Positions 1 to 56,802 of a stretch of DNA of 64,000 nt are shown here, piece after piece. The DNA is taken from assembly GCA_016182085.1 (NCBI GenBank), contig JACOYB010000009.1:1393-65392 (forward strand). Direction: 5' to 3'. The DNA is from Candidatus Magasanikiibacteriota bacterium. Its GTDB lineage: Bacteria; Patescibacteriota; Patescibacteriia; Magasanikbacterales; GWA2-37-8. The position numbers were made by a program, and so were the translations under genes. Numbering within the stretch: the stretch's first letter is position 1; every line of letters starts with the position of its first letter. The notes under the pieces were generated by a model. The model ran no database searches. It had not been told where the DNA came from and worked only from the letters and a program-made list of their open reading frames with translations.

Positions 1-692
1 GCAGCACTGATAATTTTGATGAAGTAGTAAAGGAATGTCTGTTGCTTACCGATGGCGATTGTATTGGCGCAGGCAGTGTATTGTCTGTAATATCCCAGCC
101 AAACAGTGGTGCTCCCGTGGCCCGCAATAAAGGTTTTGCTATGTCCAAAGGTGAGTATGTAATTTTTTGGGATGCAGACACCTTGGCTCATCCGCAGATG
201 CTGCAAAAAATGTTTGCTTATTTACAAAAACATCCGGACGCAAGTTATGCCTATAGCCAATTTAAATTTGGCTGGAAAACCATAAAAAGCCGGCATTTTA
301 ATGCGGATAAATTAAAACAAGTAAATTATATAGACATCACCTCGCTTATCCGCCGTTCCACCCTCAATTGTCATCCTGAACAAAGTGAAGGATCTCTGTC
401 CAGTAACGCTGTCATTCCGACCGCAGTGGAGGAATCCCTTTCGCGCACGTCTTGTCCTTTCGACGTACACTTAAAACGTTTCCAAGATTGGGATCTGTGG
501 CTCACAATGTTAGAACAAGGTAAAACCGGAGTTTTTATCCCCGAAGTCCTCTATGAAAAAGTTGTAGGCAGCAGAGAAGGTATAAGCACATGGTTGCCAA
601 GCTTCATGTATCAATTGCCATGGAAGACCAAGCAGGTTAAAAAATACGAAGAAGCCAAACAAATTATTATAAAAAAACACCATCTGTCCTAA
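1..692 (+). CDS. Family 2 glycosyltransferase, 5' end truncated by window edge; carries an in-frame hairpin-repeat insertion at about 366-466
   Basis: Reading frame is open from nt 3. GT2-like motifs are present (STDNFDEVVKE, DGDCIGAG, ...VIFWDADT...). The segment 'NCHPEQSEGSLSSNAVIPTAVEESLSRTSCPFDVH' is encoded by the dispersed 'gtcatcctga…gaaggatc' repeat. Confidence 0.7.
   Translation, partial: STDNFDEVVKECLLLTDGDCIGAGSVLSVISQPNSGAPVARNKGFAMSKGEYVIFWDADTLAHPQMLQKMFAYLQKHPDASYAYSQFKFGWKTIKSRHFNADKLKQVNYIDITSLIRRSTLNCHPEQSEGSLSSNAVIPTAVEESLSRTSCPFDVHLKRFQDWDLWLTMLEQGKTGVFIPEVLYEKVVGSREGISTWLPSFMYQLPWKTKQVKKYEEAKQIIIKKHHLS
366..466. repeat. Dispersed hairpin repeat (gtcatcctga…gaaggatctctgtc family), two tandem arms, inserted in-frame in the GT2 gene
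   Basis: Sequence 'ttgtcatcctgaacaaagtgaaggatctctgtcc…gtcattccgaccgcagtggaggaatcccttt' matches the other copies listed below. Confidence 0.7.
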
Positions 693-7851: not shown

Positions 7852-8222
7852 ATTGTCATCCTGAGCAGAGCGAAGGATCTCTGTCCGTTATATTATGCCA
7901 AATCACAATTATTATGTTTATATAATAGCCAGTGTAAGTTTCGTATTATATATAGGAGTAACAAATGACCTTATTAGAAGAGTTGAAGAACATAAGGATG
8001 GAATTGTTGATGGTTTTACTAAAAAGTATAAATGTAAAAAGTTAGTTTATTATGAAAGTTTTTTTCATGTGGAGGATGCTCTTAAAAGAGAAAAAGAATT
8101 AAAAGGTTGGAAAAGATTTAGAAAAGTTAATTTAATAAATATTGGTAATTCGCGGTGGGTAGATTTGTATGATCAACTTACGAGTTGAGACAGAGATCCT
8201 TCACTGCGTTCAGGATGACAAA
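7852..8222. mobile_element. Candidate minimal element: GIY-YIG gene bracketed by 33-bp terminal inverted repeats
   Basis: Left arm at 7853-7885 is 'ttgtcatcctgagcagagcgaaggatctctgtc'. Reverse complement of 8189-8221 is 'ttgtcatcctgaacgcagtgaaggatctctgtc'. Identity is 26/33, and all differences fall in the central 7 nt. The ORF 7895..8188 fills the interior with gaps of 9 nt or less. Confidence 0.5.
7895..8188 (+). CDS. GIY-YIG nuclease family protein (UPF0213/YhbQ-like)
   Basis: YYVYIIAS…LYIGVTNDLIRRVEEH is the GIY-YIG signature. Confidence 0.65.
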   Translation: MPNHNYYVYIIASVSFVLYIGVTNDLIRRVEEHKDGIVDGFTKKYKCKKLVYYESFFHVEDALKREKELKGWKRFRKVNLINIGNSRWVDLYDQLTS

Positions 8223-8227
8223 CTACT

Positions 8228-8470
8228 ATGTATTATGTATATATCCTGGAATGCGTAGACAAAACATTGTATACTGGTATAGCTACGGATTTAGCGCGCA
8301 GGGTAAAAGAACATAATACCTCCAAATTGGCGGCCAAATATACCCGCGGTCGCCGGCCGGTAAAAATTGTTTATACAAAGAGGTTTCGCAATCGGTCTAA
8401 TGCTTCTAAGGCCGAAGCCAGGATAAAGAAAATGACGAGAAAAGAGAAGTTGAAGTTAAGCATAGAATAA
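8228..8470 (+). CDS. GIY-YIG nuclease family protein (second tandem copy)
   Basis: MYYVYILEC…LYTGIATDLARRVKEH. Confidence 0.7.
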   Translation: MYYVYILECVDKTLYTGIATDLARRVKEHNTSKLAAKYTRGRRPVKIVYTKRFRNRSNASKAEARIKKMTRKEKLKLSIE

Positions 8471-8546
8471 ATTTGTCATTCCCGCCGGAGCGGGAATCCA
8501 GACAATTGTATTGGATACTGGATTCCCATTGCGATGGGAATGACAA
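8471..8546. repeat. Hairpin repeat, subfamily B ('gtcattccc…gggaatccag.caattgt.tggattccc…gggaatgacaa')
   Basis: Near-identical architecture at 55165-55232. Overlaps the annotated 5' end of the helicase ORF. Confidence 0.65.
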
Positions 8547-8575
8547 CCGAGAGAATAAATAATTTCTTAAACTGT

Positions 8576-10234
8576 ATGACTCAAGAGCAAGCGCTGGACA
8601 TACTTAAAACCGGCGCTAATGTTTTTTTAACCGGCGAACCTGGAGCGGGTAAGACGCATACTATAAACGAGTATGCGCGTTATTTGCGTGCCCGCAACAT
8701 AGAGCCATCTATTACCGCTTCTACCGGTATTGCGGCTACGCATTTGGGCGGAATGACCATTCATTCTTGGAGCGGTATTGGCATACGTAAATATTTGGAT
8801 GGGTATGAATTAGATAAAATAAGCTCTACTGAATATCTTGCCAAACGCATTCGCCGGGCGAAAGTATTAGTAATAGACGAAGTGTCCATGTTATCTCCCG
8901 AAACACTGGATATGGCTGACGCGGTGTGCCGCAACATACGTCAAAATGGCGATGCGTTTGGCGGTTTGCAAATTATTTTTGTCGGTGATTTTTTTCAGTT
9001 GCCGCCGGTTGTAAAAAATGAGAATAATTCACAATTACAAACTTCGCTACTTCAGAATAATAAACCCAGGTTTGCCTACGCTTCATCTGCTTGGCAAAGA
9101 GCCAAGCCTGTAGTTTGTTATCTTACCGAACAGCACCGTCAGGATGATGATATATTTTTACAAATTCTTTCGGCGGTTCGGGCTAATACTGTTAATAATG
9201 ATCACTTGTCTGAAATTGAAAAAAGAAAAGTACGCGATGAAAATTTCGCCAGTAAAGCTGTAAAATTATATACCCATAATATAGATGTGGATCGCACCAA
9301 TGATGCCATGCTTGCCACGGTTGTAAACAAACCAATGACGTTTGAAATGACAAGTAAAGGTTCGTCGGCGCTGGTGGCCACTCTTCAAAAAGGTTGTTTG
9401 TCGCCATCTAGTTTAATACTAAAAGTTGGAGCCAAAGTTATGTTTACAAAAAATAATCCTAAAGAAGGCTTTGTAAATGGAACATTGGGAATTGTGGAAG
9501 GGTTTGAACGATATATGAATTTGCCAATCATTCGCACTCATGACGGCCGGCAAATTATGGTAGAAAAAATGGAGTGGAGTGTGCAAGAAAACGGTAAGGT
9601 GCGGGCCGAGATCTCGCAGATTCCATTACGTTTAGCCTGGGCTATAACCGTGCATAAAAGCCAAGGAATGAGCCTGGAAGAAGCGGTAATGGACCTAAGC
9701 GACGTATTTGAGTTTGGGCAGGGATATGTGGCTTTGTCGCGCGTACGGCGCCTAGCCGGCCTGTATTTATTGGGTTGGAATGAGCGGGCGTTTCAGGTGC
9801 ATCCGGAAGTACTAGAAAAAGACAAAGATTTTAGGGTTAGTTCGGAGGCAAATGTAAATGTGTTTTCCGGTATTCCCAAAGAAGAACTAAGTAAGATGCA
9901 TAAAAATTTTGTTAAAGCGTGTGGGGGAGATGAAGTTGATTTGAGTTTGCAAACAGGTGAAGACGATGCACAATACGAACCTATTACTCGCCAAAATTAC
10001 GCAGAAGGATTAGGAAAGAAAAAGAAACCAAAAGCAAAAGGGTCTGGTTACGCAAAAATCAGGGAAAAGCATCCAAATGCGTATAAATCATGGAGTGCAG
10101 AGCAAGACGAAGAATTGAAACAGTTTTTTGCGAGCGGCGTACCCATTGAACAGCTCGCGGAAACATTTGGACGTAAAGAAGGCGCTATATCTATGCGGTT
10201 GATTAAATTGGGACTTATGGAAGGGGAGTTATAA
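8576..10234 (+). CDS. PIF1/RecD-like P-loop DNA helicase with a C-terminal HTH-like tail
   Basis: Walker A 'GEPGAGKTH'. 'IIFVGDFFQLPPV' is the PIF1 signature. C-terminal 'WSAEQDEELKQFFASGVPIEQLAETFGRKEGAISMRLIKLGL' resembles a sigma-70 region-4 HTH. The upstream in-frame extension to 8534 is encoded by the repeat. Confidence 0.7.
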   Translation: MTQEQALDILKTGANVFLTGEPGAGKTHTINEYARYLRARNIEPSITASTGIAATHLGGMTIHSWSGIGIRKYLDGYELDKISSTEYLAKRIRRAKVLVIDEVSMLSPETLDMADAVCRNIRQNGDAFGGLQIIFVGDFFQLPPVVKNENNSQLQTSLLQNNKPRFAYASSAWQRAKPVVCYLTEQHRQDDDIFLQILSAVRANTVNNDHLSEIEKRKVRDENFASKAVKLYTHNIDVDRTNDAMLATVVNKPMTFEMTSKGSSALVATLQKGCLSPSSLILKVGAKVMFTKNNPKEGFVNGTLGIVEGFERYMNLPIIRTHDGRQIMVEKMEWSVQENGKVRAEISQIPLRLAWAITVHKSQGMSLEEAVMDLSDVFEFGQGYVALSRVRRLAGLYLLGWNERAFQVHPEVLEKDKDFRVSSEANVNVFSGIPKEELSKMHKNFVKACGGDEVDLSLQTGEDDAQYEPITRQNYAEGLGKKKKPKAKGSGYAKIREKHPNAYKSWSAEQDEELKQFFASGVPIEQLAETFGRKEGAISMRLIKLGLMEGEL

Positions 10235-25013: not shown

Positions 25014-26330
25014 ATGAATAACCCAGAAAATCCTCAAGAATTATTAGAATGCTTTGACGAACAAGGTGTTATTATCGAGCCTCATACCCGTACGGAAGTG
25101 CATGCTAAGCCTTTACAGTATTGGCACGGTGTCGTCAATGTTTGGCTTGTAAATAGCGCTGGTGAGTTGCTATGCTCAAAACGTGCCGAAAATTTGTCTG
25201 GCAATCCGGGGAAATGGCAAACTTATTTTGGCGGACATATAAAAGCCGGGAAAAGTTTTAAAGAAAATGCGGTGTTGGAATTAAATGAAGAGGCGGGTGT
25301 AGAGATTGATCAAAATAACTTATTTTTAATTGCAAAAGGTACGAACGATGCGGATAAGCATTATTTTGAAAGTTATGCGTATTTATTTAATGGTTCAGTT
25401 AATGATTTGAAATTTAATGATGGAGAAGTAACTGAAGCCAGGTGGTATACAATGGGCAATTATTGGGCAGAAAGAAATAAAAATTTAGAAAATTGGTGCA
25501 ATGGCTGTAAACCTGAGAATCAGGAATTGATTAAAAATTGGTTAGCCTTAAGTACACAAATTTTAGGTATAAATGTTAGCAATATATCTAAAAAAAGTGC
25601 TTTGGAAAAAGTAGTTGAGTTTTTAAAATCGGATAATCAATATAAAATATTTACACCAAATCCGGAAATGGTAGTAAAAGCACAAAAAGACGAATATTTT
25701 AAACAAGTTTTAAATAGCGGTGATTTGAATTTGTGTGATGGTATGGGCCTGCAGATTTTTACTGGAATAAAACGAATTCCAGGTGTAGATTTTATGTTAG
25801 AAGTTTGTAAGTTAGTGGCGGAGCAGGGGAGAGGAGTCTATTTATTGGGTTCTGGAAATGACAAGGTGGTACAAGGTGCTTGCCAAGAGTTAAGCAAAAA
25901 ATTTCCTAATTTAAAAATATCTGGGTATAACAAAGGGCCGGTATTGCAAGAGGTTTGTCATTCTGAGCAGAGCGAAGAATCCCTCTTGTCCGAACGAAAG
26001 GGATCCTTCACGTCCGTTCAGGATGACAGCGTTATTGTAAATGAGATTAATCAATCTGGAGCGGCAGTTTTATTTGTCGCCTTTGGCATGGGTAAGCAAG
26101 AAAAATGGATTTATGAAAATTTAAGCAAAATGCCGAATGTAAAAGTGGCTATGGGAGTGGGTGGAGCATTTGATTTTATATCTGGAAAAATAAACCGCGC
26201 CCCTTTATTTTTACGTAAGTCTGGGTTAGAATGGGTCTATCGTTTGATCCGGGAACCAAAGCGAATCGGCAGGATTTTTAACGCGACTATTAAATTTTGC
26301 TACCTGGTATTTAAGAGAAAAATATTATAA
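25014..26330 (+). CDS. Fusion: N-terminal Nudix-like domain (degenerate box) plus C-terminal WecB/TagA/CpsF (GT26) glycosyltransferase; carries an in-frame hairpin-repeat insertion
   Basis: Nudix-like 'GGHIKAGKSFKENAVLELNEEAGV' (REx2EE reduced to LEx2EE). GT26 motifs 'NPEMVV…CDGMGL…', 'LLGSGNDKV' and 'GVGGAFDFISGKINRAP…WVYRLIREPKR'. Repeat-encoded segment 'CHSEQSEESLLSERKGSFTSVQDDS' (nt 25955-26032). Confidence 0.6.
   Translation: MNNPENPQELLECFDEQGVIIEPHTRTEVHAKPLQYWHGVVNVWLVNSAGELLCSKRAENLSGNPGKWQTYFGGHIKAGKSFKENAVLELNEEAGVEIDQNNLFLIAKGTNDADKHYFESYAYLFNGSVNDLKFNDGEVTEARWYTMGNYWAERNKNLENWCNGCKPENQELIKNWLALSTQILGINVSNISKKSALEKVVEFLKSDNQYKIFTPNPEMVVKAQKDEYFKQVLNSGDLNLCDGMGLQIFTGIKRIPGVDFMLEVCKLVAEQGRGVYLLGSGNDKVVQGACQELSKKFPNLKISGYNKGPVLQEVCHSEQSEESLLSERKGSFTSVQDDSVIVNEINQSGAAVLFVAFGMGKQEKWIYENLSKMPNVKVAMGVGGAFDFISGKINRAPLFLRKSGLEWVYRLIREPKRIGRIFNATIKFCYLVFKRKIL
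25955..26032. repeat. Hairpin repeat (back-to-back arms) inserted in-frame in the Nudix-GT26 gene
   Basis: 'tgtcattctgagcagagcgaagaatccctcttgtccgaacgaaagggatccttcacgtccgttcaggatgacag'. Confidence 0.7.
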
Positions 26331-26334
26331 TTTT

Positions 26335-27288
26335 ATGGCTGAAAAGTTTAGACCAGATTTTCTTTCTGCAACTCCAGATATTCAAGTTGGCCCGTTAGCT
26401 AACGATGAATACGGAGAAGGATATTTGGTGCGTGTGGGTAACCTGGAAGGTCTGCCGGAGCATGTTAAAGAGCAAGTTCCTAATGGCTTTGTTTTAAAAG
26501 AGTATAAATCATTTGTAGCAAATTATGGCACAGGCCTAATGACTGGAGGGGGTATATTTTCTCTTGTGCCAGGCCCAGAGCGGAATTTTGTATTAAGTTT
26601 GAAAGCCGCGATAGAAAATTTTGCGCGAAAAAATAAGCGTTTTCCTTCCGAAGAAGAAGTTAGAGTAGAAATTGTTGCGGACTCATCCTTTCAAGATCAA
26701 TTTGGCGGTAGGGCCGCCTGCAAAGATCTTTACTATCGAACTTACACTAAAGCGGCTGAAGCAGAACTATTACGTAGACACACAGTTATAAAAAACTATT
26801 TTGCTAAATCTTTACCCGACCTTGTTGTGCCAACACGTATTTTTATAGATAATGATGTGAAAGTTAAAGAAAAACGTATATATGAACTTCAGCCCCGCGT
26901 AGAGGCCGTGCCCTTTAAAAAATCAGAAGGAGCAGGGGTATTTGATTCAGAAACAGGACGAACAATGATAGGGTGGGATGTGGGGGAAGCATTTATTCAA
27001 CGTATTAAAGAAAAATTTCCAAAAAAGATACCTTTATTTAAAAAAGAGCTTATTACTTTTATTGAACAAATAAAAAAAATGCCTTCCGAAACAGGCTATC
27101 TGCCTTATGATTGTGCCCACCTTTCTAATCTGTTATTCACAGAAAATGGATTAAGACTAGCGGACACAAATGCGGTTATCCCGATTCCATCCGAACCATC
27201 TGAGGAGGAAAAAGAGCATATTGAGATATATATGGAACACTTTAACCACGATATAAAAACACTGGAGTTATTAGAGGCAAGACTGTAA
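26335..27288 (+). CDS. Hypothetical protein
   Basis: 317-aa ORF; a weak kinase-like 'HLSNLLF…LADTN' stretch (speculative). Confidence 0.35.
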   Translation: MAEKFRPDFLSATPDIQVGPLANDEYGEGYLVRVGNLEGLPEHVKEQVPNGFVLKEYKSFVANYGTGLMTGGGIFSLVPGPERNFVLSLKAAIENFARKNKRFPSEEEVRVEIVADSSFQDQFGGRAACKDLYYRTYTKAAEAELLRRHTVIKNYFAKSLPDLVVPTRIFIDNDVKVKEKRIYELQPRVEAVPFKKSEGAGVFDSETGRTMIGWDVGEAFIQRIKEKFPKKIPLFKKELITFIEQIKKMPSETGYLPYDCAHLSNLLFTENGLRLADTNAVIPIPSEPSEEEKEHIEIYMEHFNHDIKTLELLEARL

Positions 27289-27310: not shown

Positions 27311-28828
27311 ATGATCAAAACCCGTTTTGCACCCAGCCCCACCGGATATTTACATGTAGGAGGTCTACGCACCGCTTTGTATTCATATTTATTTGCCAAA
27401 AAACATGGTGGTAAATTTTTGTTGCGCATAGAAGATACGGATAGAGAAAGGTATGTGGCCGACGGCGTGGCAAATATTTTAAAATCACTGTATTGGGCAA
27501 GTGTTGTGCCCGATGAGGGTGTCATCCTGAGTGAAGCGAAGGATCCCTCTCGTTCGGATAAAAGGGATTCTTCGGCAAAGCCTCAGAATGACAATTTGCG
27601 AATTACTCAAAAGGGTGAAAATGGACCATATACACAATCAGAACGTTTAGATATATATAAAGAATACGCACAAAAGTTACTTGATGCTGGACATGCATAT
27701 TATTGTTTTTGCAGCTCCGAAAGATTAGAAAAATTACGAGCCGATCAACAGGCCAAAAAAATGCCAACGGGCTACGATGGTCTTTGCGCAAAACTTGACC
27801 CAACAGAGTCTAAACAAAAAGCAGAGGCAGGAGAAAAACATGTAATGAGACTTAAAATGGACAAGCACGGCGAAACTGTTTTTAATGATTTGATTCGCGG
27901 AGAAGTGCGTTTTAAAAATGAATTGGTAGACGATCAGGTACTAATAAAATCAGATGGTTTTCCTACTTATCATTTTGCGGTGGTGGTAGATGATCATTTA
28001 ATGGGTATTACCCATATTATCCGCGGCGAAGAATGGATAAGCAGCGTGCCAAAGCATGCTCAACTATATAAATACTTTGGTTGGGAAATTCCCGAGATGG
28101 CTCACTTGCCACTATTGCTTAACCCAGATAAATCCAAGCTCAGCAAACGCCAAGGTGATGTAGCTGTAGAAGATTATATGAAAAAAGGTTATTTACCAGA
28201 AGCGCTGGTAAATTTTGTGGCATTTTTGGGTTGGAATCCGGGCACAGAAAAAGAAATGTATACAATGGAAGAATTAGTTAAAGATTTTGATTTAGCCAAA
28301 GTCGGTAAAACCGGCGGGGTTTTTAATATTGAAAAATTAGATTGGTATAACAAACAATATATTAAAAATTTATCCAACGCAGAGTTGGTAGAAAAAGCCA
28401 TGCCTTGGCTGGAAGAAGCGGGGGTAGGCGGCCGTCCAATTCTAGAGAAAGCCGTGTCATTGGAAAGAGAAAGAATTACAATTTTGTCCGAATTGCCGGA
28501 AGCAATTAAATTTGTTTTTGAGCTGCCAGATTATAAAGCTGACACACTAGTCTGGAAAAAAAGTTCAAACGAAGAGGTAAAAAATATTTTGCCAAAACTT
28601 ATAGAATTTTTTGATACAGTTGATGAAAACGATTGGGATAAACAAGTTTTAGAAGAAAAAACCAAAATTTGGATAGCTGAGAAAGGATTCTCTGTTGGTT
28701 CTGTACTCTGGCCAATGCGCGTGGCATTATCTGGACAAGAAAACTCCCCGGGTCCTTTTGAAATTGCCGAAGTTTTAGCCAAAAAACAAACAATTACAAG
28801 ACTTCAAATTGCCTTAGAAAAGTTATAG
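27311..28828 (+). CDS. gltX: Glutamyl-tRNA synthetase with an in-frame hairpin-repeat insertion (nt 27518-27596)
   Basis: 'RFAPSPTGYLHVGGLRTAL' HIGH region and 'KLSKR' KMSKS variant. The insert 'VILSEAKDPSRSDKRDSSAKPQNDN' lies between the conserved '…DEG' and 'PY.QS.R' positions. Confidence 0.85.
   Translation: MIKTRFAPSPTGYLHVGGLRTALYSYLFAKKHGGKFLLRIEDTDRERYVADGVANILKSLYWASVVPDEGVILSEAKDPSRSDKRDSSAKPQNDNLRITQKGENGPYTQSERLDIYKEYAQKLLDAGHAYYCFCSSERLEKLRADQQAKKMPTGYDGLCAKLDPTESKQKAEAGEKHVMRLKMDKHGETVFNDLIRGEVRFKNELVDDQVLIKSDGFPTYHFAVVVDDHLMGITHIIRGEEWISSVPKHAQLYKYFGWEIPEMAHLPLLLNPDKSKLSKRQGDVAVEDYMKKGYLPEALVNFVAFLGWNPGTEKEMYTMEELVKDFDLAKVGKTGGVFNIEKLDWYNKQYIKNLSNAELVEKAMPWLEEAGVGGRPILEKAVSLERERITILSELPEAIKFVFELPDYKADTLVWKKSSNEEVKNILPKLIEFFDTVDENDWDKQVLEEKTKIWIAEKGFSVGSVLWPMRVALSGQENSPGPFEIAEVLAKKQTITRLQIALEKL
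27518..27596. repeat. Hairpin repeat (back-to-back arms) inside gltX
   Basis: 'gtcatcctgagtgaagcgaaggatccctctcgttcggataaaagggattcttcggcaaagcctcagaatgacaa'. Confidence 0.7.
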
Positions 28829-55119: not shown

Positions 55120-55300
55120 TTTGTCATTGTGACTACAACCTTTTGGTCTACACGTTCCCGTAGTTGTCATTCCCATCGAAATGGGAATCCAGTCGACAAT
55201 TGTCTGGATTCCCGCTTTGGCGGGAATGACAATATATGGACAAAGATTCCTCACACAAGAGCCTGCCCTGAGCTTGTCGAATGGGTTCGGAATGACAGTG
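55120..55300. repeat. Cluster of hairpin repeats (subfamily B plus partial copies) between atpC and atpD
   Basis: 'gtcattcccatcgaaatgggaatccagtcgacaattgtctggattcccgctttggcgggaatgacaat', plus flanking 'ttgtcattg…' and '…ttcggaatgacag'. Confidence 0.65.
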
Positions 55301-56725: not shown

Positions 56726-56802
56726 TTGTCATCCTGAACGGAGTGAAGGATCTCTTTTGTTCGGACTGGAGGGATTCTTCGCAAAGCTTCAGAATGACAA
56801 TT
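56726..56802. repeat. Hairpin repeat (back-to-back arms) between atpD and atpG
   Basis: 'ttgtcatcctgaacggagtgaaggatctcttttgttcggactggagggattcttcgcaaagcttcagaatgacaa'. Confidence 0.7.

Follow-up and report, generated by a model that had tools for sequence, protein, structure and literature searches.

A 64-kb stretch of DNA from a Candidatus Magasanikiibacteriota bacterium (contig JACOYB010000009.1, positions 1,393 to 65,392; hereafter the window) contains a 74-nt palindromic element in frame within gltX, the gene for glutamyl-tRNA synthetase (GluRS). We consider it probable that this element is a non-coding repeat of the repetitive extragenic palindromic (REP) kind that landed in gltX, likely with a Ssn-type GIY-YIG nuclease as its partner, and that it is translated as a tolerated loop of the enzyme. 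A preliminary description, made from the DNA letters, had reported at 27518-27596 a hairpin resembling a MITE (miniature transposable element with inverted repeats). The hairpin is indeed at this place in gltX, with borders 2-3 nt further inside, at 27520-27593. The reading frame is kept across it in an intact 505-aa open reading frame (ORF), and the translation quoted there is correct.

The element is an imperfect 74-nt palindrome, TGTCATCCTGAG…CTCAGAATGACA (TGTCAT…ATGACA), and its full sequence is TGTCATCCTGAGTGAAGCGAAGGATCCCTCTCGTTCGGATAAAAGGGATTCTTCGGCAAAGCCTCAGAATGACA. Its arms form an outer pair (27520-27531 / 27582-27593) and an inner pair (27537-27548 / 27563-27574), each arm being 12 nt long and 92% complementary to its partner. 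It is a dimer of two inverted hairpin units, each tagged with TGTC and with the tags facing outward. As RNA, the element folds at -36.6 kcal/mol (z score -3.0) and as DNA at -14.8 kcal/mol (z -3.4); in both cases, 0 of 200 dinucleotide shuffles folded as well. In the frame of gltX it translates as VILSEAKDPSRSDKRDSSAKPQNDN, and the encoded peptides include DPSRSDK and DSSAKPQNDNLR.

The host gene is intact. Its product matches the Pfam family tRNA-synt_1c at 1e-105, as well as Anticodon_2, and the ORF is uninterrupted across the insert, reading …VVPDEGVILSEAKDPSRSDKRDSSAKPQNDNLRITQKGENGPYTQSERLDIY…. In a metagenome-assembled genome (MAG) of Candidatus Magasanikbacteria, a protein with 100% identity carries the annotation glutamate--tRNA ligase. 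The same insert with the same junctions is present in an independent Logan assembly (contig L081, which encodes the protein P0014) and is therefore not an artefact of one assembly.

Alignment of GltX homologues showed that 117 of the 120 listed do not have this element at the site. The spacing between the conserved DEG and GPY motifs is 15-16 residues in nearly all 120 (for example P0002, with the empty loop DEGVTQETNGKTSEEGKNGPY) and 34 residues in the window protein, a net gain of 18 aa, though the peptide encoded by the element is 25 aa long. In the GluRS of Thermus thermophilus, the spacing is 8 aa. Using phmmer against PDB chains, we obtained an alignment that was split exactly at the insert: residues 1-71 of the query matched residues 1-71 of 1j09 (T. 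thermophilus GluRS) and residues 102-502 matched 75-467, placing the split between 1j09 residues 71 and 75. The loop is even shorter in other solved GluRS chains. This variation in length shows that the insert site is a loop that is naturally variable in length and not a junction of adjacent residues. The statement in the preliminary description that 'VVPDEG' and 'PYTQSERLDIY' are adjacent in canonical GluRS does not hold, given the 15-16 aa between DEG and GPY in related GltX of the candidate phyla radiation (CPR) and the 8 aa in T. thermophilus.

The same loop has taken up other sequences. The CPR GltX proteins P0030, P0036, and P0113 contain unrelated extra peptides there, and P0046 carries a longer relative of the gltX element approximately one codon from the same 3' junction, which together mark the loop as a tolerant site. 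The P0030 loop peptide, RPHLNLLLKGEEVVDPSPVRRGQGEV, resembles the translation of a different palindromic repeat family.

In an AlphaFold2 model built with a 71-sequence alignment, the window GltX retained a confident GluRS fold with a mean pLDDT (predicted local distance difference test) of 92.1. The paired strands 69-75 and 96-101 make up a stalk, at the tip of which (84-92) the pLDDT falls below 50. The model fits an insert that would protrude as a flexible loop and leave the enzyme fold intact. The preliminary description had expected an insert in a surface loop, absent from orthologues; the ortholog alignment agrees with this, and so does the predicted structure.

The gltX element belongs to a repeat family that is dispersed in the window. 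A 25-mer of its left arm has two matches in the window against 0 expected, recurring at 7855. The motif HGTCATYC was observed 23 times against approximately 7 expected, and cataloguing TGTCATYC yielded 20 units. These units, of types A, B, and C, all begin with TGTCAT. Type A has the form TGTCAT-CCT-GA…GA-AGG-ATC, with a 5-bp ATCCT/AGGAT basal stem around an 11-nt interior, an internal loop, and a distal stem that varies. Every type A unit has C as the base after the palindrome (…AGGATC or …AGAATC). Type B has the form TGTCATTCCCGC-loop-GCGGGAATCCAG, and a single type B unit folds at -9.5 kcal/mol (z -4.6). The window contains three type A dimers of 73-74 nt, two type B dimers, and solo units (Table 1). 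Like the gltX copy, the second type A dimer is in frame within a gene, in this case an ORF that fuses a Nudix domain to a WecG-type glycosyltransferase. Alignment to the syntenic WecG of contigs L082 and L083 revealed a net gain of 18 aa at this dimer, and the gltX and WecG dimers encode 25-26 aa. We also considered that the mobile unit might reach into the adjoining 'LRITQKGEN' of GltX and rejected this, since other copies share nothing past …ATGACAA.

To place these repeats, we compared them with published systems. The SsnA protein of Neisseria meningitidis is a 94-aa GIY-YIG protein (cd10448) with conserved tyrosines in the GIY and YIG motifs (Y6 and Y17) and the catalytic glutamate E64. 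It binds the hairpin repeat NTS (CGTCATTCCCGCGMAVGCGGGAATCYRG) as single-stranded DNA (ssDNA) only, and only one strand of it, and is a site-specific endonuclease that cuts a few nt upstream and is inactive on double-stranded DNA and on RNA (Chenal et al., Nat Commun 2025, PMC11893778). The C just 3' of the palindrome is reportedly the most critical base for Ssn binding. Bacterial Ssn homologues are flanked by Ssn-related motifs (SRM), for which the pattern HGTCWYN(0-2)YYVSBRHN(0-5)WNVSBRGN(0-2)RNCYNB was published; the NTS-ssnA-NTS layout was likened to an insertion sequence (IS) and to REP/RAYT. NTS are the dRS3 repeats of Neisseria, and only 2% of them are intragenic in N. meningitidis (PMC11893778).

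A single-domain GIY-YIG nuclease gene lies 19 kb upstream of the gltX element, between two inverted type A units. Its product has thousands of homologues of approximately 96 aa (mostly 95-100) in many phyla. At 80 genomic loci of such homologues, the sequence upstream of the gene was compared by alignment with the reverse complement of that downstream of it, and mismatched pairs served as controls. For 51 of the 80 loci, the inverted flank match was above the 95th percentile of the controls. The matching pairs almost all start with TGTCAT followed by a hairpin, the stem of which differs between lineages. Canonical SRMs, as defined by the published pattern, were present within 500 bp in 17 of the 80 loci and on both sides in eight, which ties the window protein to the Ssn family. 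Some of these SRMs are identical to the NTS consensus of Neisseria, one of them in a CPR (Uhrbacteria) genome, and proteins sharing 50-60% identity with the window protein are flanked by canonical SRMs. Residues Y9, Y19, and E66 of the window protein are invariant in a 42-sequence alignment, and the 47 residues between the YIG tyrosine and the glutamate equal the Y17-E64 spacing of SsnA. NCBIfam yielded no match for either GIY-YIG ORF of the window. Annotated homologues often include N- or C-terminal read-through of the arms, e.g., …DRDPSLRSG or MSVYFCHSEQSEESL…. The gene at 7895-8188, enclosed by the two units of the gltX element in their inverted arrangement, a layout that recalls an IS or a REP/RAYT unit, is likely the partner of this element.

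Copies of the dimer are also widespread in metagenomes, where a scan for the core GAAGGATCYCT-N8-18-AGGGATTCTTCG returned at least 120 stretches; the metagenome dimer counts that follow are among the matches listed. Sixty-nine full dimers were found. In 22 cases, an ORF runs across the dimer with 40 or more codons to either side of it, and several such ORFs on high-GC contigs appear spurious. Hosts confirmed by Pfam are DNA polymerase I, UvrB, TruB, MiaA, TatD, RNase HII, a PLP (pyridoxal phosphate) enzyme, an RlmI-like methyltransferase, a metallophosphatase, and an O-antigen ligase. Of the six frames of the element, four contain no stop, while the remaining frame on each strand has a TGA from C(C/T)TGA, and the intragenic copies use exactly the four open frames. 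In low-GC contigs, 14 of 54 dimers are inside genes, as are two of the three type A dimers of the window. The base before GTCAT is T in 64 of 67 copies with full flanks, and the distal stem of type A co-varies among the copies.

For a strict frame test, we required contigs of at most 55% GC and at least 60 stop-free codons on both sides of the dimer. Fourteen dimers were in frame and open, two were in frame with a stop, and one was out of frame. The fraction in frame (16/17) deviates strongly from the one third expected if frame were irrelevant (binomial p ~3e-7). This bias argues for translation of the element and against its removal from the RNA, since removal would leave two thirds of the copies out of frame. 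The preliminary description had offered selection for multiple-of-3 insertions into surface loops as one explanation, and the four open frames, the 14/2/1 split, and the retained fold all agree with it. Carriage of the dimer by phages was dropped as an explanation because the core is absent from 2.9 million viral contigs.

Judged by these features, the gltX element belongs to the class of CGTC/TGTC-tagged REPs, which is also that of SRM/NTS, and combines it with in-frame insertion as known from Rickettsia. The resemblance to the Ssn/SRM system lies in the gene of approximately 95 aa for a GIY-YIG protein between two inverted hairpin units starting with (C/T)GTCAT, and in the dispersal of such units in the genome. 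In the type A units of the window, the positions reported as critical are retained (GTC tag, AT-starting palindrome, and C after the palindrome), and type B units agree with the NTS consensus (28 nt) at 24-26 positions. Unlike in the Ssn study, the host here belongs to the CPR/Patescibacteria, a group that is not mentioned there (PMC11893778). The intragenic share also differs from the 2% of N. meningitidis, with two of three type A dimers in the window and 14 of 54 listed low-GC metagenome dimers inside genes.

CGTC-tagged REPs often have TGTC as the tag, a stem starting with AT, and a CCA tail, and occur mostly as dimers with the tags outward that can fold as one long hairpin; no dedicated enzyme was found for them (Di Nocera et al., BMC Genomics 2013, PMC3733652). 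Stems of 8-9 bp and loops of 4-5 nt characterize their four canonical families, which come from five phyla, CPR not included. Intragenic dimers contribute 20-30 aa to uvrA/B, dnaE, recB, truB, and tRNA-synthetase genes, and RPE-4 and RPE-6 of Rickettsia conorii correspond to CGTC REPs (PMC3733652). The window repeats share with them the TGTC tag, the palindrome starting with AT, a short tail at the 3' end, the tags-outward dimers, and the intragenic dimers, here of 25-26 aa. Type B units fit this description as well (ATTCCCGC-CGGA-GCGGGAAT-CCA). A GIY-YIG partner for CGTC REPs was supplied later by the work on Ssn.

Rickettsia palindromic elements (RPEs) are found in frame in housekeeping genes and are translated as surface peptides compatible with the fold of the host protein (PMC10969869). 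The gltX element is alike in being a palindromic repeat in frame in a housekeeping gene that would add a surface peptide compatible with the fold. It differs in host phylum and probably in sequence family, and the first RPEs were approximately 150 bp long compared with 74 nt here. RPEs and the REPs in tRNA-synthetase, uvrB, truB, and dnaE genes are well-known cases of palindromic elements in frame (PMC10969869; PMC3733652), so that the statement of the preliminary description that such an insertion in an aminoacyl-tRNA synthetase gene is unusual is not supported.

The term 'MITE' of the preliminary description, taken in its classical sense, is not supported either. Terminal inverted repeats are present, but no target-site duplication was detected, and a GIY-YIG protein takes the place of an IS transposase. 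REP/REPIN elements carry the tag GTAG, and their enzyme RAYT is a HUH/Y1 transposase of the IS200/IS605 family; their mobility has population-level support. The window repeats are like REP/RAYT in consisting of short tagged hairpins, mostly in inverted dimers, and in having a single-copy enzyme gene flanked by two inverted units. They are unlike it in the tag, (C/T)GTC, in the GIY-YIG nuclease, and in lacking population-level support for mobility.

We propose the following course of events. The element in gltX would be transcribed and translated, contributing a 25-aa peptide (net gain 18 aa) to a length-variable loop of the catalytic domain. Judging from the published biochemistry of SsnA, Ssn would bind each unit as ssDNA and nick a few nt 5' of the tag. 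With the tags outward, each strand would present one unit in cleavable orientation, so that Ssn could cut just outside both ends of the dimer, and the same geometry is conceivable for the gene-carrying copy, i.e., the units around the GIY-YIG gene. We infer that Ssn activity, or recombination triggered by it, spreads the dimer. The element may then persist because it is stop-free in four of six frames, with only those insertions surviving that preserve the frame and fall in tolerant loops of essential genes.

Several observations weigh against this interpretation. Taken singly, type A units of the window show no stronger folding than shuffled sequence, and it is only as a dimer that they exceed it (z -3.4). 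Furthermore, the published SRM pattern has 0 matches in the 64-kb window on both strands, although type B units fail only in the loop. On these two grounds, type A is classified as a variant family, set apart from SRMs by the missed pattern, the short basal stem, the internal loop, and the variable distal stem. The 5-bp stem with its internal loop is also unlike the 8-9-bp stem of canonical CGTC REPs. At 67 metagenome dimers (among the matches listed), no target-site duplication of 2-4 nt was detected above chance. For gltX, there is a single close presence/absence comparison, and the closest protein with an empty site shares 85% identity; a search for a near-identical strain with an empty site, conducted via the downstream M23 peptidase and via contigs with an identical GIY-YIG protein (approximately 1-2 kb and ending at the repeat), found none. 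The insertion event itself cannot be reconstructed, and 6-8 host codons seem to have been lost at both intragenic sites, gltX and WecG, with no such loss at the P0046 insertion. We know of no demonstration that SRM or CGTC repeats are mobile. Finally, the arms of the gltX element are identical at 79 of 80 nt between the window and the gltX of L081 (45-1583), whereas synonymous sites elsewhere in the gene are approximately 45% changed, which is not predicted by a passive insertion that decays neutrally.

The window GltX groups with P0002 and P0009, two orthologues with an empty site that share 84-85% identity with it outside the loop. The same insert has just one other carrier, P0014, which shares 76% identity with the window protein and falls into a different GltX clade, again with empty orthologues. 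When codons for the same amino acid are compared between the two genes, 1 of 22 differs inside the element and 165 of 365 differ elsewhere in gltX (Fisher p = 7e-5). The identity stops exactly where the element does, the central loop differs, and the 3' flank shows ordinary synonymous change (5/12). Possible readings of the arm identity are selection at the DNA level, short-patch transfer between lineages, or repeated insertion of a conserved subfamily; being a single pair of sequences, the two genes do not decide among these. The first two readings would mean either that the host keeps the intragenic dimer for a function of the DNA, for instance as a site at which Ssn would cut incoming homologous ssDNA, as with NTS in the transformation of Neisseria, or that the dimer spreads between gltX alleles by recombination, in a homing-like manner and together with a short flank. 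We regard this explanation as unlikely, though it has the codon comparison in its favor, along with the sharp borders of identity around a varying central loop and the position of the two carriers in different clades, each beside empty orthologues. In addition, eight of the nine residues after the insert match P0014 and only 2-5 of the nine match the window protein's own clade. Homogenization within the genome is made unlikely by the arms of the other type A copies of the window, which are approximately 20% different from those in gltX. The modulation of transformation by NTS/Ssn in Neisseria (PMC11893778) also speaks for it. However, the case draws on one sequence pair and a 9-aa flank, and non-orthologous copies can be nearly as similar: the WecG dimer is approximately 95% identical to an intergenic copy in the unrelated contig L125, so that a slowly evolving or recently spread subfamily that inserted twice into a loop tolerant of it fits too. 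The unrelated hairpin inserts of P0030, P0036, and P0113 in the same loop speak for tolerance of the loop and not for a specific function, and we know of no experiment that links Ssn to the biology of CPR bacteria. A wider form of the idea, to which we give the same low credence, is that intragenic Ssn-motif dimers in CPR housekeeping genes are held near-unchanged and moved between alleles by Ssn-dependent recombination of ssDNA, making them GIY-YIG-driven, homing-like hairpins with a short flank, or that they mark essential genes of the host in a single-strand restriction system.

The preliminary description had also raised removal of the insert at the RNA level. In this case, the hairpin would be excised from the gltX transcript, in an intron-like manner or by nuclease processing and ligation, and the mature enzyme would be free of it. 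The stable RNA fold given above would suit such processing, but a scan of the 64-kb window revealed no Rfam family, and we are aware of no bacterial mechanism for splicing out a 74-nt hairpin. Moreover, the 16 of 17 listed dimers in frame and the exclusive use of the four stop-free frames point to translation, the peptide is kept in the orthologue P0014, and Ssn is inactive on RNA (PMC11893778). Taken together, this makes removal very improbable. It is harder still to believe that the segment is a lineage-specific extension of the native GluRS loop, or an assembly error, unrelated to mobile DNA, a reading that is already refuted by the further copies. Loop length does vary among bacteria, but the 73-74-nt sequence is present at two other, unrelated sites in the window and around the GIY-YIG gene, at least 120 metagenome stretches carry the element, and the same insert was assembled independently in L081.

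Understood as a repeat that landed in gltX and is translated as a tolerated loop, the element would join three hitherto separate literatures, namely those on in-frame palindromic elements such as RPEs, on the enzyme-less CGTC-tagged REPs, and on Ssn single-strand nucleases. New are the CPR host phylum, a unit family missed by the published pattern, the high intragenic share, and the conservation of the arms in gltX. The small genomes of CPR/Patescibacteria appear tolerant of such repeats in many essential genes, among them those for GluRS, PolA, UvrB, TruB, MiaA, and RNase HII, and loops of 20-30 aa encoded by repeats are to be expected in the annotation of CPR proteins. The published SRM search pattern overlooks whole families of these units. 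If the nucleotide conservation of the gltX copies proved general, it would be a first hint that intragenic Ssn motifs are under selection or actively transferred.

Table 1. Coordinates of gltX, the repeat units, and associated genes in the window.
Feature	Position	Strand	Basis
gltX (glutamate--tRNA ligase), intact host gene of the insert	27311..28828	+	505-aa ORF
Type A dimer in gltX, two inverted TGTC-tagged hairpin units, tags outward, in frame, translated VILSEAKDPSRSDKRDSSAKPQND(N)	27520..27593	+	inverted repeats, folds, unit catalogue
Left unit of gltX dimer, TGTCAT-CCT-GAGTGAAGCGA-AGG-ATC-CCT	27520..27548	+	GTC tag, AT-starting palindrome, C after palindrome
Right unit of gltX dimer, minus strand TGTCAT-TCT-GAGGCTTTGCCGA-AGA-ATC-CCT	27565..27593	-	
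Nudix + WecG/TagA/CpsF glycosyltransferase fusion ORF, host of second dimer	25014..26330	+	
Second type A dimer (73 nt), oppositely oriented, in the reading frame of the Nudix-WecG ORF, translated (V)CHSEQSEESLLSERKGSFTSVQDD	25956..26028	-	alignment to syntenic WecG
Third type A dimer (73 nt), in the intergenic space of two minus-strand ORFs	56727..56799	+	
Single-domain GIY-YIG nuclease gene, Ssn-family homologue by sequence, 97 aa	7895..8188	+	PF01541 1.4e-13, residues 5-78
Type A unit upstream of GIY-YIG gene, TGTCATCCTGAGCAGAGCGAAGGATCTCTGTCC	7854..7886	+	
Type A unit downstream of GIY-YIG gene, inverted, minus strand TGTCATCCTGAACGCAGTGAAGGATCTCTGTC	8190..8220	-	
Type B dimer, units near-identical to Neisseria NTS (TGTCATTCCCGCCGGAGCGGGAATCCAG)	8474..8545	.	
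Second type B dimer, intergenic, minus-strand unit = NTS consensus at 26/28	55165..55231	.	
Forward units in tandem, one of type A (369) and one of type C (410), in frame in family-2-like glycosyltransferase ORF, …NCHPEQSEGSLSSNAVIPTAVEESLS…	369..445	+	

The Ssn-like gene is directly followed by a second GIY-YIG ORF (8228-8470, 80 aa), which also matches T5orf172. Behind it lies the first type B dimer, which overlaps the predicted start of a 566-aa ORF (8534-10234), suggesting that this start was probably called too early. The Logan contigs L084 and L085, which encode an identical GIY-YIG protein, end approximately 33 nt past its stop codon, inside the right unit. Repeats of this kind therefore break short-read assemblies, and copy numbers in MAGs are probably underestimated.

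With regard to the genes hit in metagenomes, a PolA gene (L099:1108-4191) contains two dimers in opposite orientations, and in a TruB gene (L123:85-825), one dimer is accompanied by an additional peptide derived from a unit. In these metagenomes, a gene can thus hold more than one in-frame insertion. A protein search with two element-encoded peptides joined (55 aa) returned no candidates. When 1.84 billion representative proteins were scanned by HMMER for the 35-aa insert region, P0241 was the sole hit, the query being too short to inform. P0241 (320 aa) consists of four tandem repeats of approximately 70 aa, each with VILREAKSPSRHSARSAAESQNL, and is probably no real protein but the translation of a related hairpin repeat arranged in tandem. 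The idea that the 'empty' GltX loops (QDxNG) are remnants of old elements was rejected, since an xLDxxG loop is general in distant CPR GltX.

The WecG of the window has an N-terminal Nudix domain and a total length of 438 aa, whereas the syntenic WecG proteins in L082 and L083 have 241-247 aa and no Nudix. Between WecG and gltX lies a 317-aa ORF (26335-27288) with no Pfam match, which is absent from the syntenic loci. A scan of the window for tRNA genes came back empty. The glycosyltransferase ORF with the tandem units extends from the start of the window to 692 in frame 3 and is the third gene of the window with a translated repeat; a solo unit at 694 follows its stop codon. Further downstream, an in-frame TAA at approximately 1049 appears to break a MazG-like reading frame. 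A cluster at 1266-1450, which lies downstream of a short ORF, is made up of tagged units (1266, partial; 1284; 1418) and other GC-rich palindromes, in the manner of bacterial REP clusters.

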